Positions 13,321 through 19,471 of a stretch of 64,000 nucleotides of DNA are shown here, piece after piece. This stretch comes from Sedimentisphaerales bacterium. Its GTDB lineage: Bacteria; Planctomycetota; Phycisphaerae; Sedimentisphaerales; SM23-30. The first letter of the stretch is position 1. Each line of letters begins with the position of its first letter. The position numbers were made by a program, and so were the translations under genes. The stretch lies in NCBI GenBank assembly GCA_963666285.1, contig OY762711.1; one strand, written 5' to 3'. The notes under the pieces were generated by a model, which saw only the letters and a list, made by a program, of their open reading frames with translations, was not told the DNA's origin and searched no databases.

Positions 13321-15587
13321 TTAATTTTTATCATACACCCTGACATAATCAATATAATATTTATGAGGAAACAGGCTGTCATCAATACCTTTTTGACCGC
13401 CCCATGCTCCGCCAATCGCAAGGTTTAGTATTAAATAATGCGGCTTATCAAACGGCCATTCATTATCTCCGGTACCTTCATTACGAAAAGTAAAATAATG
13501 CTTATTATCAACGAATGTCTCAATCCTGTCATCATACCACTCAATTGCATATAAATGATACTTATCCATACAGGTTGGAACCTTTATAGTAGCACTCTTC
13601 TGTGTGCCGATTACATGATAATAGCTCTTACAGTGAATTGTGCCAACGATAGTCTCCGGATCATAACCAACATTTTCCATTATATCGATCTCGCCGCATT
13701 TCGGCCACCCAACCTGACCAATATTTTTCCCCAACATCCATATCGCCGGCCAGGTCCCTTTCCCTGTTGGCAGCTTTGCCCTTATCTCAAATCTACCATA
13801 AGTCCATTCTTTCTTCCCTGCAGTATGGATACTCGCTGATGTATATTCAGCATTCTCTTTGTACCCCTCTTTTCGTGCCTCAATCAGCAAACTGCCATTC
13901 TCAACACGTGTATTCTCCAGTCTCTGCCTGGTATAATATTGCTTTTCATTATTTCGGATAAAACCAACCTCATGGTTCCACTTCTCAGCATCAGGCAAGC
14001 CCTGATAGTCAAACTCATCATTCCAGCTCAACTTCCACTCAGGATCCTCCGGTTTATTGTAGCCCTTTTCATCACAATGCAATTTTGAATGCAATCTTAC
14101 TTTATTTACCGTATCCCCGCCATTTTGTAAGTAAAACCGGTTTTCCTTGACTCCGGAATCAATTCTATCTGATTTCGTATTATCTGCGGTAAAAACGGCA
14201 CTTGTTAACGGATGCCATATACCATCGATACTCTTCACCCAGCCATTACCAAAACTTGCATTGCGGATTTGCTTGGCACTTTCGCCATTACGCCTGAAAT
14301 CTTCGACAAACGAATAATACCCTTTTAATGGATCGCCAGCGGTTTTTGTCTGGAATGTAGCAAGATGCTTCCAGCCGCTCGTCTCGCTCAAACAAACAAA
14401 AGCTGAGTAAATTGTTGTGTCATTCTCTACCACAGCTTTGACTATACACCTTACAGTCTGGTTCAGCTCCCAATCAGTATAAAACATAGACTTCGCGCCC
14501 GTGCCTTCATTTCCAAACCTGCTTATTTTTACATCATCTCCGGAAAATATAACTTTAACCCGGTTTTCTTCTTGCACCTTAGCTGGATCATTCTGATCAC
14601 CCGGATCCCACACAGAGAAGATTACTACTTTTTTCCCTCCCCATAACTCCTGGATTCCAAAATAGCCGTGATTAAATCCACAAACGCAAAAGTAACTGCC
14701 TGGAACACTTTTTTCAACTGAAACTTCATTATAAAATGCCATACCTTCCGGAGCGTCATACCACAAATGAACACTGCGGGCTGCTCTAGGAAACTCATTT
14801 CCCTGGGCCAAGACATTTGTTACTATTAAAAAACATATAAACAGGAGAATAAACGTATACTTTTGTCGAGTAGGCATGTCGCCTCCTTTCATTAATTTAA
14901 CAAATTCTGAGTTTCATTATATTTTGTGCAAGGAAACGCATGCCCCTCACAGAACCGGACTTGAAGATTTCCCTCATCCGGCTCTTCATTAATGCTCACT
15001 TTGACGGCTACATAAGGCAAAGTAATGTGCCTTGTAGAAGTCTCCGATAGAAGACGCTGTGGAACGTTCATGGTTTCTTCCAGTTCAGTGCCTGGCCAAT
15101 ATCCTGTTTCGCCTTTACACATTAATGCTGACCCCTTCGAGTGCCTCAAACTTCGAAACTCAACAGGCATTACCCTGTTTACTCCTCTACTATGAGTCAG
15201 TCCGACTACCAAAATGCCATACGGCCGCGTCACGGTTTCAGCTCCTTGGCCGCTTCCTTTCGGAGCACTTCGGTTCTCCCAAGTTCCAATGCAGTCAGTT
15301 CGTTTGCCCGCTACGGACTCAGACCCCGGCTCGTCGATATATGCTCGCCGTATTTCGCATATATCGATATTGGCTTCAGGCATATGAAAACCCTGGCCCG
15401 GATGCGATAAGGAATAATTTCGGGGCTCAACACCTTCACTTGCGTTGTGGCTGACAAACTCCTTTCCCGGGGCTTCGTACAGTTCGTTACCTCTCTGCAC
15501 GCCCGGTGCTGTAATGGGCGGGTGGCTAGCCCTTACCCATGCCGGATTGGCCGGCTTGACTACATTAGCTTCGCTTGGCGCTCTCAT
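13321..15587 (-). CDS. Secreted DUF3472-like + GH16 (laminarinase-type) hydrolase, interrupted by a group II intron; exons 15584-15587 and 13321-14864
   Basis: GH16 motif WPAIWMLG..WPKCGEIDIMEN; splicing joins ATGA|AAAAG to give MKKYTFILLFICF signal peptide (515 aa); unspliced RNA has an in-frame ATG at 14877. Confidence 0.85.
14865..15583 (-). mobile_element. RT-less group II intron, copy 1 (719 nt)
   Basis: 5' GAGCG; domain V GAGCCGGATGAGGGAAATCTTCAAGTCCGGTTC (14952-14984, AGC triad); domain VI with bulged A (14871) ending CTCGAC; short DIV closed by CATTAATGT/GCATTAATG; no YADD/RT; identical copy 2955 bp away. Confidence 0.92.
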
Positions 15588-15646
15588 ACTCTTTCCTTAC
15601 CCGGCATAACCAGATGAATTAAAAAATTAAACTTATGGCCAAAATA

Positions 15647-16795
15647 TCATTGTTTTAGCCATTCAAATGAAAATCTGTCAAAAACTATCATCTCATATGG
15701 ATGATCATTTCCTTTCTCAAATAAACAGCCCGCTGTCCCATCAGCCGTCACTGCAAGACACGAATACGCACTGGCTCCGCTATATAGCAATTTTGCGACC
15801 GGCCAGGTCTTACCATCGTCATAACTCAGCCTAACAGTCATGTTAACACGAGAACTCATACTCGCTGGATTAGAAAACAGAAGATAAGGTCGTGATTGTG
15901 AGTTATCATCATCACTCATCCACTTCACAATACTCGCCTGGCAGATTGGCTCAACCAATTCAGAATCATAAAAAGTCTCCGACCAGGTTACTCCGCCATC
16001 GTCACTGCAGCTCACCGCACGGGTCCTATTCTCCCTGAAGTAATTTCTGCTATTCAGCATAATCCTTCCGTCCGACAATTCGACAACCTGACACTCATTT
16101 AACTTATCTGCCCGGGTTGAACCTCCCAGCTTCCAGCTGTTACCATGGTCATCGGAATAACTAACATGAGAATAATACTTCTTGCTACCCTTCTCTATAT
16201 GATCGCAAGGTATCACCAATCTCCCATTAAACCGCCCGCTGCATAGCTGAATCCCGCAACCAGGCCCGGTTGCATACCAGCTCCAGTTTTCCTGCTTTGT
16301 CGAACTGGTTATATCAATAGGCTTTGTCCAGGAAATACCATCATCTGAACTGTGAGACACCCAGACTGTTCTGGTCTCTTTACTGCTGCCATCTATTATC
16401 TGCCTTTCGTGGTCCGAGCCAAGGTTGCGAGTCATAAGCAACCAGATAATACCGGTATCTTCGTCTACCACCACACAAGGATTACCGCAGGTATTTTCAC
16501 CGTCTGACCAGACTATTATCTGATCTGACCATGTTTTACCATTATCTGTACTTCGCTTCAGTAAAATATCGATATTGCCGGCATCCCCTTTGTTTTCCCT
16601 GCCTTCACAAAATGCCAGGATAGTCCCTTTTGTAGTCACTCCCAAAGCCGGAATACGATAGGTATGATAGCCGCCACTGCCACTTTCGTAAACAGTGCAT
16701 ATTTCTCTCTCAAAATTACTTTCAGCCAAAACATGAAAATGACAAACCAAAAGTAATATTATAATTTTCAGTCCAAAATACATGTAATTATTCAT
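15647..16795 (-). CDS. Secreted exo-alpha-sialidase (GH33)
   Basis: YRIP motif; Asp-boxes STDNGKTW, SSDDGISW, SDDHGNSW, SDDGGVTW, SYDDGKTW; signal peptide. Confidence 0.92.
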   Translation of the reverse strand: MNNYMYFGLKIIILLLVCHFHVLAESNFEREICTVYESGSGGYHTYRIPALGVTTKGTILAFCEGRENKGDAGNIDILLKRSTDNGKTWSDQIIVWSDGENTCGNPCVVVDEDTGIIWLLMTRNLGSDHERQIIDGSSKETRTVWVSHSSDDGISWTKPIDITSSTKQENWSWYATGPGCGIQLCSGRFNGRLVIPCDHIEKGSKKYYSHVSYSDDHGNSWKLGGSTRADKLNECQVVELSDGRIMLNSRNYFRENRTRAVSCSDDGGVTWSETFYDSELVEPICQASIVKWMSDDDNSQSRPYLLFSNPASMSSRVNMTVRLSYDDGKTWPVAKLLYSGASAYSCLAVTADGTAGCLFEKGNDHPYEMIVFDRFSFEWLKQ

Positions 16796-16821
16796 ATCTA
16801 CACCTCGATAAGCTGACAGGC

Positions 16822-18542
16822 TTACTGTCTCGTATTGTTCACCTTGACTGCTTCAATTGTCATATCTTTCCATTCGGATTCAATACCGCGTAAATGATGA
16901 TCGAAAAACTGCTTTGTATATTTAATTGTCTCCGGTCCAAATCCTTGACCGTGCCCTCCGTCTTTTACGGTAATCATTGTACAGTTTATTTTTGCTTTTC
17001 TCAAAGCAGTAATAAATAATTCAGATTGATTATACGGCACCAGCGGATCTTTGGTACCATGAATTATTAAAAATGGAGGATCATCTTTAGTAATATACCG
17101 AATTGGATTCGCAGTAGCAACCTTATCCTTATTCTCTTGTATGGCTCCTCCGATAAGTTCTGATTCCGGCGAATCTGGTGCATCGTGGCTCTGGATCGAA
17201 CCTGCTTTATCCATCTGCAAAAAATCGGTCGGGCCAAAGAAATCTGCAACACATGAAACATGACTCGAAACGTCTTTATATTCTCCTAGTCCCCCATCCA
17301 TAACCGCCGCTCCACTGCTCGTACCCAGCATTGATACCAGGTGGCCGCCGGCTGATGATCCCCATACCCCTATCCTATCGCTATCTAATCCGTATTTATT
17401 TGCATTTGCCCTTATCCAGCGAATGGCAGCTTTACAGTCATGAATTTGTGCCGGCCAAACGGCATCTCCACTTAACCTGTAATTTACTGTCGCCGCGGCA
17501 TAATCTCCTGAAGCAACAAACGGTATCAGCTTTCCGACACTACTGGATTTATCTCCCGCTCTAAATGCTCCGCCATGAACATACACAATTACAGGCAAAG
17601 ACTTTTCTCCTGAATTCTTTGGAATCAGCAAATCTAAACACTGTCTTTCATGACTGTTTTTTAGATAAGGTAAGTCTTTTATGTGTAGAACATTATCGCG
17701 GTTCATCTTATACTGCATACCTCTTTCCGGCCTTTCCCTGTTTTGTTCCTGCTGGCCGAATAGCTGAGCTGCTCCCAAAAATATAACCAGAATCACGATT
17801 ATCTGTCTATTAATATCTTGTCGAGTAGGCATGTCGCCTCCTTTCATTAATTTAACAAATTCTGAGTTTCATTATATTTTGTGCAAGGAAACGCATGCCC
17901 CTCACAGAACCGGACTTGAAGATTTCCCTCATCCGGCTCTTCATTAATGCTCACTTTGACGGCTACATAAGGCAAAGTAATGTGCCTTGTAGAAGTCTCC
18001 GATAGAAGACGCTGTGGAACGTTCATGGTTTCTTCCAGTTCAGTGCCTGGCCAATATCCTGTTTCGCCTTTACACATTAATGCTGACCCCTTCGAGTGCC
18101 TCAAACTTCGAAACTCAACAGGCATTACCCTGTTTACTCCTCTACTATGAGTCAGTCCGACTACCAAAATGCCATACGGCCGCGTCACGGTTTCAGCTCC
18201 TTGGCCGCTTCCTTTCGGAGCACTTCGGTTCTCCCAAGTTCCAATGCAGTCAGTTCGTTTGCCCGCTACGGACTCAGACCCCGGCTCGTCGATATATGCT
18301 CGCCGTATTTCGCATATATCGATATTGGCTTCAGGCATATGAAAACCCTGGCCCGGATGCGATAAGGAATAATTTCGGGGCTCAACACCTTCACTTGCGT
18401 TGTGGCTGACAAACTCCTTTCCCGGGGCTTCGTACAGTTCGTTACCTCTCTGCACGCCCGGTGCTGTAATGGGCGGGTGGCTAGCCCTTACCCATGCCGG
18501 ATTGGCCGGCTTGACTACATTAGCTTCGCTTGGCGCTCTCAT
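16822..18542 (-). CDS. Secreted alpha/beta-hydrolase (esterase), interrupted by a group II intron; exons 18539-18542 and 16822-17819
   Basis: HGGAF, GSSAGG nucleophile, HGTKD, GGHG; splicing joins ATGA|AAGAT to give MKDINRQIIVILVIF (333 aa). Confidence 0.85.
17820..18538 (-). mobile_element. RT-less group II intron, copy 2 (719 nt)
   Basis: Apparently identical to 14865-15583 (same translations in three frames); boundaries ATGA|GAGCG...CTCGAC|AAGAT. Confidence 0.92.
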
Positions 18543-18568
18543 AAAAACTCCCTTCATTATTCTATCGA

Positions 18569-19471
18569 TCAATCAAATTTTAAACCTGTATCTTGCCGTT
18601 TTAGTGTAATATCTCGTAAATAATGATCAAAAAATTGCCAAACCTTATCTGTCACCTCTTCTCCAAATCCTTCACCATGCCCACCACCTTCAATAGTAAC
18701 CATTATACATTCATTATTCTTATCTCGCAATGCCTTAGAAAGCAGCTCAGATTGAATATATGGTACAATGGAATCGCCGGTTCCGTGAACGATCAGAAAT
18801 GGCGGCTCATCACCATTAATATATGTCATGGGATTCGCTCCCGCAATTTTACCAACATTATCTTCGATCGGTCCGCCAAACAGCTCAACTGCTGGTGATT
18901 CATCAATTTCATACTCTACGTCAGTACCAAACTTATCCATATGAAAGAAATCTGTTGGCCCATAGAAATCAACTACACAAGATACCTTACTGGAAACATC
19001 TAAACAACATTCAGGCTCACCCTCCAACGATCTCACCCCGTTACTCGTACCTAGCATAACGGCAAGATGACCGCCTGCCGAACACCCCCATACTCCTATT
19101 CGGCTGCTGTCAATTCCATATTTCTCGGCATTGTTTCGGATCCAGCGTAACGCAGCTTTACAATCATGGATCTGTGCCGGCCATATCGCATCACTGCTAT
19201 ACCGGTAGTTAATTGACACTGCCGCATATTGGCCTGACTCCACAAATGGAACAACGATAGGCAAACCAGTAGCTTTATCACCGGTTCGATATGCTCCCCC
19301 ATGTATATATACAATAACAGGAAGCAGATCTTGTTCACGGCTTTCAGGGATCAGCAGATCCAGATTCTGCCTGCAATGACCGTTGTCAACATAGGCAATG
19401 TCCTGTAAATGCCTGACCCCGGTTTTATTAATATCATGCATGTTCTTTCTATTTATCATATACCAATTCAA
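18569..19471 (-). CDS. Alpha/beta-hydrolase (esterase), paralog of the downstream gene
   Basis: HGGAY, WPAQIHDCKAA, GCSAGGHL, HGTGD, GGHG. Confidence 0.88.
   Translation of the reverse strand: MNWYMINRKNMHDINKTGVRHLQDIAYVDNGHCRQNLDLLIPESREQDLLPVIVYIHGGAYRTGDKATGLPIVVPFVESGQYAAVSINYRYSSDAIWPAQIHDCKAALRWIRNNAEKYGIDSSRIGVWGCSAGGHLAVMLGTSNGVRSLEGEPECCLDVSSKVSCVVDFYGPTDFFHMDKFGTDVEYEIDESPAVELFGGPIEDNVGKIAGANPMTYINGDEPPFLIVHGTGDSIVPYIQSELLSKALRDKNNECIMVTIEGGGHGEGFGEEVTDKVWQFFDHYLRDITLKRQDTGLKFD

Follow-up and report, generated by a model that had tools for sequence, protein, structure and literature searches.

An open reading frame leading from the host start codon through a group II intron that lacks an ORF and is inserted at start codons

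How does a group II intron come to be readable from the start codon of its host gene almost to its own 3' end? Bacterial introns are thought to exclude ribosomes from their catalytic core. In the window, that is, the whole stretch of 64,000 nucleotides from a Sedimentisphaerales bacterium analysed here, translation from a host ATG on the minus strand yields 231 sense codons (14892..15587) up to the stop TAA at 14894-14892. Met 173 of this frame lies at 15071, and the TAA overlaps an ATG at 14892 that opens an ORF in the frame of exon 2 (14892..13321). Translation thus bears out what the first-pass annotation had described, both the length of the frame and the stop/start overlap. The product has no match in Pfam or NCBIfam. 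The open frame is real but lineage-specific, and it belongs to an intron that homes to start codons.

The intron (copy 1; 14865..15583, minus strand) is a 719-nt group II intron lacking an ORF; it starts with GAGCG and ends with AC, its boundaries being defined by eight different flanks. It matches the Rfam families RF02005 (115.9 bits), which marks the domain I core, and RF00029 (55.5 bits), and its fold has a z-score of -4.5. These matches place D1-D4 at 15550-15314 and DV-DVI at 14986-14865, and they are repeated 2955 bases away. Domain V, a domain VI with a bulged A and an AY end are present, as judged from RF00029 and folding; the 5' boundary reads GUGYG in most relatives. Exon 1 (15584..15598, minus strand) comprises the host Shine-Dalgarno sequence AAGGA (15598-15594), IBS1 and ATG plus A (ATG at 15587-15585), and the intron is placed one base after the start codon, i.e. 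following ATGA. Further along the same strand lies the Ic1 hairpin (15476..15503), in which the host-frame stop of the family reads AGA (15494-15492) and the internal AUG of the family reads GUA (15480-15478). It is followed by a candidate EBS2 loop (15406..15417) with an anti-Shine-Dalgarno-like UUCCUU, whose register of pairing with IBS2 varies, and by EBS1 (UCAUAU, 15382..15387), which, as covariation with IBS1 indicates, base-pairs with the final six nucleotides of exon 1, the AUG among them. Domain IV holds a relic of an RT gene (14985..15142, minus strand), with a Met at 15071-15069 and no stop in the register leading on into domain V. The catalytic domain V (14952..14984) and domain VI (14865..14950), whose bulged A is placed by folding at 14871, complete the minus-strand structure. 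The labels Ic1, EBS2 and DIVa are to be taken as provisional. A scan for promoters and terminators returned consensus matches only, plus one weak terminator-like hairpin (15662-15635) preceding copy 1.

Besides eight copies of the 719-nt intron, the genome contains two fragments, two RT-bearing relatives of 1929 nt and a sister of 648 nt whose domains I-III are 89% identical to those of the intron. The second copy in the window (17820..18538, minus strand; host ATG at 18542-18540) is identical to the first, with the same open frame from 18542 to 17847. Indeed, the frame is the same in all eight copies, and since these differ by 0-3 bases they count as one event. Joining the exons over the eight sites produces plausible N-termini at six; of the other two, one gives a short open frame and one has no gene. 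For copy 1, exon 2 (13321..14864, minus strand) encodes a DUF3472 and GH16 protein whose signal-peptide-like N-terminus would be restored by splicing; for copy 2 it encodes a BD-FAE family esterase (16822..17819, minus strand). Window positions 13321-19471 (minus strand) form one cluster, consisting of a BD-FAE esterase, the intron, a second BD-FAE esterase, a sialidase-like BNR protein, the intron and the DUF3472-GH16 protein.

The related RT is a protein of 443 amino acids that matches RVT_1 only, plus TIGR04416, with no match to an endonuclease. Its two near-identical copies, at C1:5397267 (minus strand) and C1:910721 (plus strand) (L042, L043), both have the EBS1 UCUUAA and lie at AT-rich sites without a long downstream frame. 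The copy at 5397267 has YADN in place of YADD, which suggests that probably only one of the two encodes an active reverse transcriptase. The sister at C1:1613560 (plus strand) (L009) shares its upstream flank with the RT copy at 5397267 and has a degenerate EBS1. Where its domains III and IV meet, 71 nt are deleted between short sequences that resemble each other; the sister could be a copy in decay or a recombinant. The joint of this deletion is present in all three DNA contig runs of one study. A joint lacking the intron was seen in none of these runs, a result that speaks neither for nor against splicing.

As to the choice of site, ATGA precedes the intron at all eight genomic copies, and AAGG or AGGA occurs at -19..-11 in seven of the eight targets, the background being 335 of 5298 for matching genomic sites and 161 of 526 for start-like ones. 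EBS1 changes together with IBS1 in seven retargeted relatives (L011, L019, L047, L052, L053, L280, L289). By this covariation EBS1 is shown to read the AUG region, while the UUCCUU in the EBS2 loop suggests that EBS2 probably reads the Shine-Dalgarno sequence. Judged from its insertion sites, the lineage homes to ATGA start codons, although the metagenome scan required ATGA and the collection therefore gives no rate of such targeting.

Specialised IIB1 (CL1) introns have likewise been described at initiation and termination codons, e.g. Avi.groEL and EcKTE56.groEL (PMC12584367, PMC4028801); how that clade colonises start and stop codons is called unknown in PMC12584367. The lineage in the window resembles the clade, as described there, in its position at or next to host start or stop codons (eight of eight copies after ATGA, six to seven of which open long frames on splicing). 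It differs in several respects from what those accounts describe. The IIB1/CL1 clade has a 5'-subterminal insertion of 300-700 nt, whereas the window intron, 719 nt as a whole, has none, its domain I match beginning 33 nt from the 5' end. EcKTE56.groEL has a CL1 RT with an endonuclease domain, unlike the RT related to the window intron, and the targets of the window intron are unrelated genes.

Could a frame of this length arise by chance? The first-pass annotation had put the chance of 172 open codons at about 3e-4, and dinucleotide shuffles are in line with this (at least 172 open codons in 3 of 20000, at least 231 in 0 of 20000), though such a null is too generous because family stops concentrate in two registers while total stop content is normal. 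In the conserved core of 61 aligned sequences, an alignment that omits eight deleted or aberrant loci, two registers contain 437 and 398 stops compared with 65 in the third. The mean number of stops per 100 codons in the three frames is 4.3, 4.6 and 5.1. A mosaic null gives an open host frame in about 0.1% of introns, as against about 1% for frame +1. The host frame is open in 2 of 45 clusters (1 of 44 without the index case), an excess over this null to which the index case itself contributes one. Open runs of at least 100 codons occur in a sense frame of 36 of 57 clusters and in an antisense frame of 22 of 57, the shuffle mean being 69 codons. In the window, an antisense ORF of 131 codons lies over the ribozyme at 15059-15454 and again at 18014-18409 (plus strand).

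Relatives were collected by searches of genomes and metagenomes and by RT-based searches. At least 180 pattern matches gave 122 with at least 300 nt, 101 verified introns and 72 clusters at 92%, 60 of which have an ATGA member. The host frame stops within 100 codons in 58 of these 60 clusters, at a median of codon 31; the expectation that diverged homologs would keep it open is thus contradicted. The sister and both RT copies in the genome carry host-frame stops at codons 6 and 32. At codon 6 (15570..15572, minus strand), copy 1 has GAA where these three have TAA. Over 143 codons the frames of sister and window copy differ in openness only by these two stops, and the window copy enters the stop-poor register via small indels. 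Only the window family and L051 have an open host frame in the DNA sample. L051 is 70% identical to the window intron over the first 300 nt and crosses partly different registers. A protein search adds two cases of host-frame read-through, P0003 (230 aa, 71% identical overall and 84% over the first 62 residues) and P0054 (159 aa).

The early closure of the host frame in almost all clusters, and the mere two stops that separate the sister frame from that of the window copy, argue for the reading that we favour on balance, namely that the 231-codon frame is a by-product of a stop-poor register of the ribozyme. The long antisense open runs point the same way. Conversely, the excess of host-open clusters over the mosaic null and the openness of P0003 and P0054 count against it. 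In outline, a non-autonomous group II intron homes to translation starts and is probably mobilised and spliced in trans with the help of the related RT at C1:910721. Host protein would be made from spliced RNA, or might be made from unspliced RNA by means of a Shine-Dalgarno sequence and AUG found in domain VI (see below). The conserved ribozyme possesses one stop-poor register, in which the RT relic and domain V are open too. Small indels in a single master copy, together with the absence of two stops, would have linked the host ATG to this register, and that copy would then have spread to eight sites. Passage of ribosomes may occur but would not be needed for the life cycle of the intron.

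Yeast aI1 and aI2 are examples of an intron ORF fused with the upstream exon. A frame that descends from such a fusion would explain the present one in another way: the RT-bearing parent would have been translated from the host ATG, and the window frame would be its remnant. The relic RT N-terminus in the window copy does share its frame with the host ATG, and there is precedent in organellar group II ORFs, described as fused to the 5' exon with "core creep" (PMC3073962, PMC8393795). Like those introns, as far as these sources describe them, the window intron has an open frame from the upstream exon through the ribozyme core into domain IV. In the window copy, L051, P0003 and P0054, such a frame leads from the 5' exon through domains I-III. 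Unlike the organellar frames so described, however, that of the window enters a relic of 59 codons and no RT, and the RT-bearing relatives are not fused. Among 30 RT-bearing ATGA clusters, the RT lies in frame 0, +1 or +2 relative to the host ATG in 14, 9 and 7, respectively. It is open from the host ATG in 0 of 30, each having at least three upstream stops. This answers in the negative whether the parent RT ORF lies in an open host-ATG frame, as the first-pass annotation had supposed it might. Both RT copies in the present genome lie in frame +1 and have eight stops upstream. In intact cases the RT ORF ends 9-29 nt before domain V and never reaches domain VI. By these sequence comparisons, descent from an RT fusion is refuted for the sampled introns, and as an account of the window frame it can hardly be credited at all.

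Domain VI contains features that would permit a fresh start of translation on exon 2. In copy 1, the Shine-Dalgarno sequence AAAGGAGG at 14889-14882 precedes an AUG at 14877-14875 in the frame of exon 2, and according to folding both pair with the 5' arm of the domain (CAU, UUUCCUU). An AUG at -13 from the 3' splice site, in the exon 2 frame, is found in all 39 complete introns inserted at ATGA (25 clusters) and in 0 of 4 outgroup introns, which have a short domain VI. The Shine-Dalgarno sequence and AUG at -13 are the conserved candidate for restart. The TAATG overlap, proposed earlier as the restart site, does not qualify: among 44 complete introns, the in-frame TAATG occurs at this site in the eight copies of this genome and the sister only, and it was rejected as a conserved restart. 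In the window copy, the host-frame TAA (14894-14892) is followed in domain VI by TGA; in L197, L204 and L299 the position of the TAA (-30) is taken by TGA, with no ATG. The available descriptions of the IIB1/CL1 introns mention neither a spare Shine-Dalgarno sequence and AUG in domain VI nor a crossing frame (PMC12584367, PMC4028801).

The Ic1 hairpin of most relatives carries the host-frame stop (codon 31), followed by a purine run and, 14-17 nt downstream, by an AUG. Of 40 ATGA clusters with the Ic1 motif (five clusters without it being excluded), 16 possess an unbroken internal frame across domains I-III, which in every case begins within 25 nt downstream of the host-frame stop. A further 2 are host-open, and in 22 neither frame is intact. 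In 14 of 34 clusters of RT-bearing introns, the internal frame ends between -20 and +11 nt of the RT start. It spans 180-195 codons, as far as domain VI, in the ORF-less subfamily. The window copy has GUA in place of the internal AUG and the host frame is open instead. P0003, judged from its protein sequence, seems likewise to have lost the internal AUG.

This anatomy can be taken to mean that ribosomes are relayed across the intron under weak selection. In the common form they would initiate at the host ATG and terminate at codon 31, thereby opening the Ic1 hairpin that carries it, and restart at the AUG downstream so as to cross domains I-V. They would stop about at the RT start in RT-bearing introns and, in the ORF-less subfamily, in domain VI some 5 nt before the sequestered Shine-Dalgarno sequence, restarting there on exon 2. 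In the window copy, direct read-through would have replaced the first hand-over. The peptide would be irrelevant, the benefit being coupled expression of exon 2 or the RT and less polarity. Such a relay is possible, but we hold it with less than even confidence. It would be consistent with the close spacing of host stop and internal AUG, and an intact internal frame goes with a late host stop in 16:0 cases compared with 15:9 in the rest (Fisher p=0.006, uncorrected for kinship). Moreover, at most one restart suffices to cross 19 of 45 clusters, compared with 0.35 expected from shuffles, and none of the 4 outgroup introns can be crossed in this way. In 34 of 59 sequences (two fewer than in the alignment above) the block is open in one sense frame, and in 9 of 59 in an antisense one. 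However, descent from a single common ancestor makes the 19 of 45 roughly one event, and more than half of the clusters are broken. Three retargeted introns away from ATGA retain the same crossing anatomy, the RT has its own purine-rich, Shine-Dalgarno-like run, and the internal AUG belongs to a structural stem. The last point counts in favour of the by-product reading, as does the report that ribosomes in group I intron cores impair splicing (PMC3073962).

Of the transit from the host ATG to domain VI that the first-pass annotation had envisaged, the end point finds partial support, a crossing frame that ends beside the Shine-Dalgarno sequence and AUG being typical of the ORF-less subfamily; the point of departure differs, the usual launch being the internal AUG just behind the host-frame stop. 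The model of host fusion plus TAATG restart is thus unsupported, and transit ending in domain VI might survive in the modified form of the relay, a suggestion that we regard as tentative. A broader version, which we also advance with some doubt, supposes that the lineage has evolved transparency to translation. EBS1 and EBS2 would mimic initiation pairings, and the Ic1 and domain VI hairpins would each provide a relay of stop, Shine-Dalgarno sequence and AUG. Synthesis of the RT or of exon 2 would be coupled to host initiation, and ribosome traffic would set the balance of splicing and unspliced expression. The window copy would be derived, its first hand-over now being read-through.

Whether selection has acted on the frame was assessed by substitution tests on pairs of extant sequences rather than on tree-based counts of changes. 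Codon periodicity is absent in 30 extant pairs (504, 583 and 568 differences, p=0.34), which indicates that the peptide is not conserved as a protein. The relic has pN/pS values of 0.4-2.0, below 1 in most pairs. Uncorrected values below 1 are expected from transition bias alone. The proposal that the product of 195-231 residues is a functional protein overprinted on the ribozyme could invoke these low ratios and the predicted proteins that resemble the frame, at least 254 in number. The missing periodicity, the missing Pfam and NCBIfam matches and the switch of register in mid-sequence in P0037, P0047-P0049 and L051 make it very improbable. By contrast, the by-product reading draws on the same absence of periodicity, on the spread of pN/pS and on the 22 of 40 clusters in which neither frame is intact.

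The fate of the relic is harder to reconcile with a by-product. In the ORF-less subfamily, a single register is open through both the domain IV relic and domain V, and none of the 6 DNA-found types has a stop in its relic over a span of at least 78 substitutions (P about 0.02-0.09). Among the protein clusters of the subfamily (120 of the 254 matches being listed), 49 of 51 continue in register into domain V, and at least 108 missense changes are seen in them. These figures, together with the 16 internal frames that begin close to the host-frame stop, count against the by-product reading. The relay would further be favoured by the domain VI stop shared by 46 of the 51 clusters and by the absence of clean nonsense ends among them, where about 3.5-7 would be expected, the protein set overlapping the DNA set. 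Relic lengths of 44, 43, 40, 39 and 37 codons form in-frame classes, and P0049 has a compensated frameshift, both also in keeping with a relay. However, the protein search is biased towards open frames, and shorter members are concealed within the clusters. Among 97 cluster members checked, 57 reach the stop, several start late and 13 with the subfamily signature end elsewhere, mostly with odd tails or at possible contig ends. In favour of a by-product, seven other ORF-less introns carry stops in the relic, and open frames do not persist significantly in pairs (both open in 11 of 23 sense pairs, 8.3 expected, P=0.13; antisense 1 of 8, 4.0 expected), a result that also weighs against the relay. 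L150 and the sister are broken upstream.

Three further lines of evidence were rejected. An apparent deficit of stop gains (30 observed, 55 expected) vanished because the expectation had counted both directions; halved, it is about 27, and the pattern recurs in the antisense frame. The two principal length classes account for the anchor distances modulo 3. The relic Met is not a conserved start, as the residue varies among M, V and I.

A literature search returned no account of the lineage or of a relay, supplementary intron tables, Michel 2007 and Simon 2008 being outside its scope. Several described systems share single features with it. C.te.I1 of Clostridium tetani is ORF-less, with start codons of downstream ORFs annotated in domain 5/6 and 75-95% of the RNA unspliced (PMC3919590). 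As far as it is described there, it resembles the window intron as an ORF-less bacterial group II intron with start codons in its terminal domains, but differs in being class B-like, without EBS2, with alternative 3' ends and a shifted 5' splice site, at a single locus and not at a start codon. The ORF-less introns of Trichodesmium dnaN and RIR are described as served in trans by a related RT (PMC12584367), and the several ORF-less copies plus related RT-bearing intron per genome recall the present case. Unlike what is described in Trichodesmium, the RT copies here carry a different EBS1 and lie at AT-rich sites without a long downstream frame, and trans action would have to be presumed. The N-terminus of the related RT resembles, we assume, that of class E. 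Bacterial class E group II introns are described as having an RT/maturase without endonuclease (PMC3552965), like that found here.

If the relay is real, the lineage does the opposite of excluding ribosomes from the core, which would explain low-cost introns on start codons inside operons and would offer a simple system for testing competition between translation and group II splicing. Should the frame prove to be a by-product, the clusters of "hypothetical proteins" that resemble it (at least 254) are probably shadows of the ribozyme, which matters for annotation.

Searches of other collections yielded few members. In a viral collection, the 5' pattern gave 31 stretches, and 15 of the 15 distinct ones scored failed the homology filter; a protein scan of that collection found no lineage member. 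Contigs C2-C4 of the genome assembly (65.6, 65.6 and 66.6 kb) are nearly equal in size and have no intron match. A plasmid collection contained one lineage member, a 5'-truncated copy on pKAP298 (L340; NC_005915.1, about 742-2659), whose RT is 64.7% identical and whose domain VI has a Shine-Dalgarno sequence and ATG. In a clade formed by L147, L170 and L130, frame +1 is open for about 130 codons, starting in L147 and L170 at the first GTG of the intron, and might be another route through the ribozyme. P0075 and P0109 represent a separate ORF-less lineage, one record being labelled Fibrobacterota, in which frames of 203-208 codons cross a longer relic and end in domain VI.
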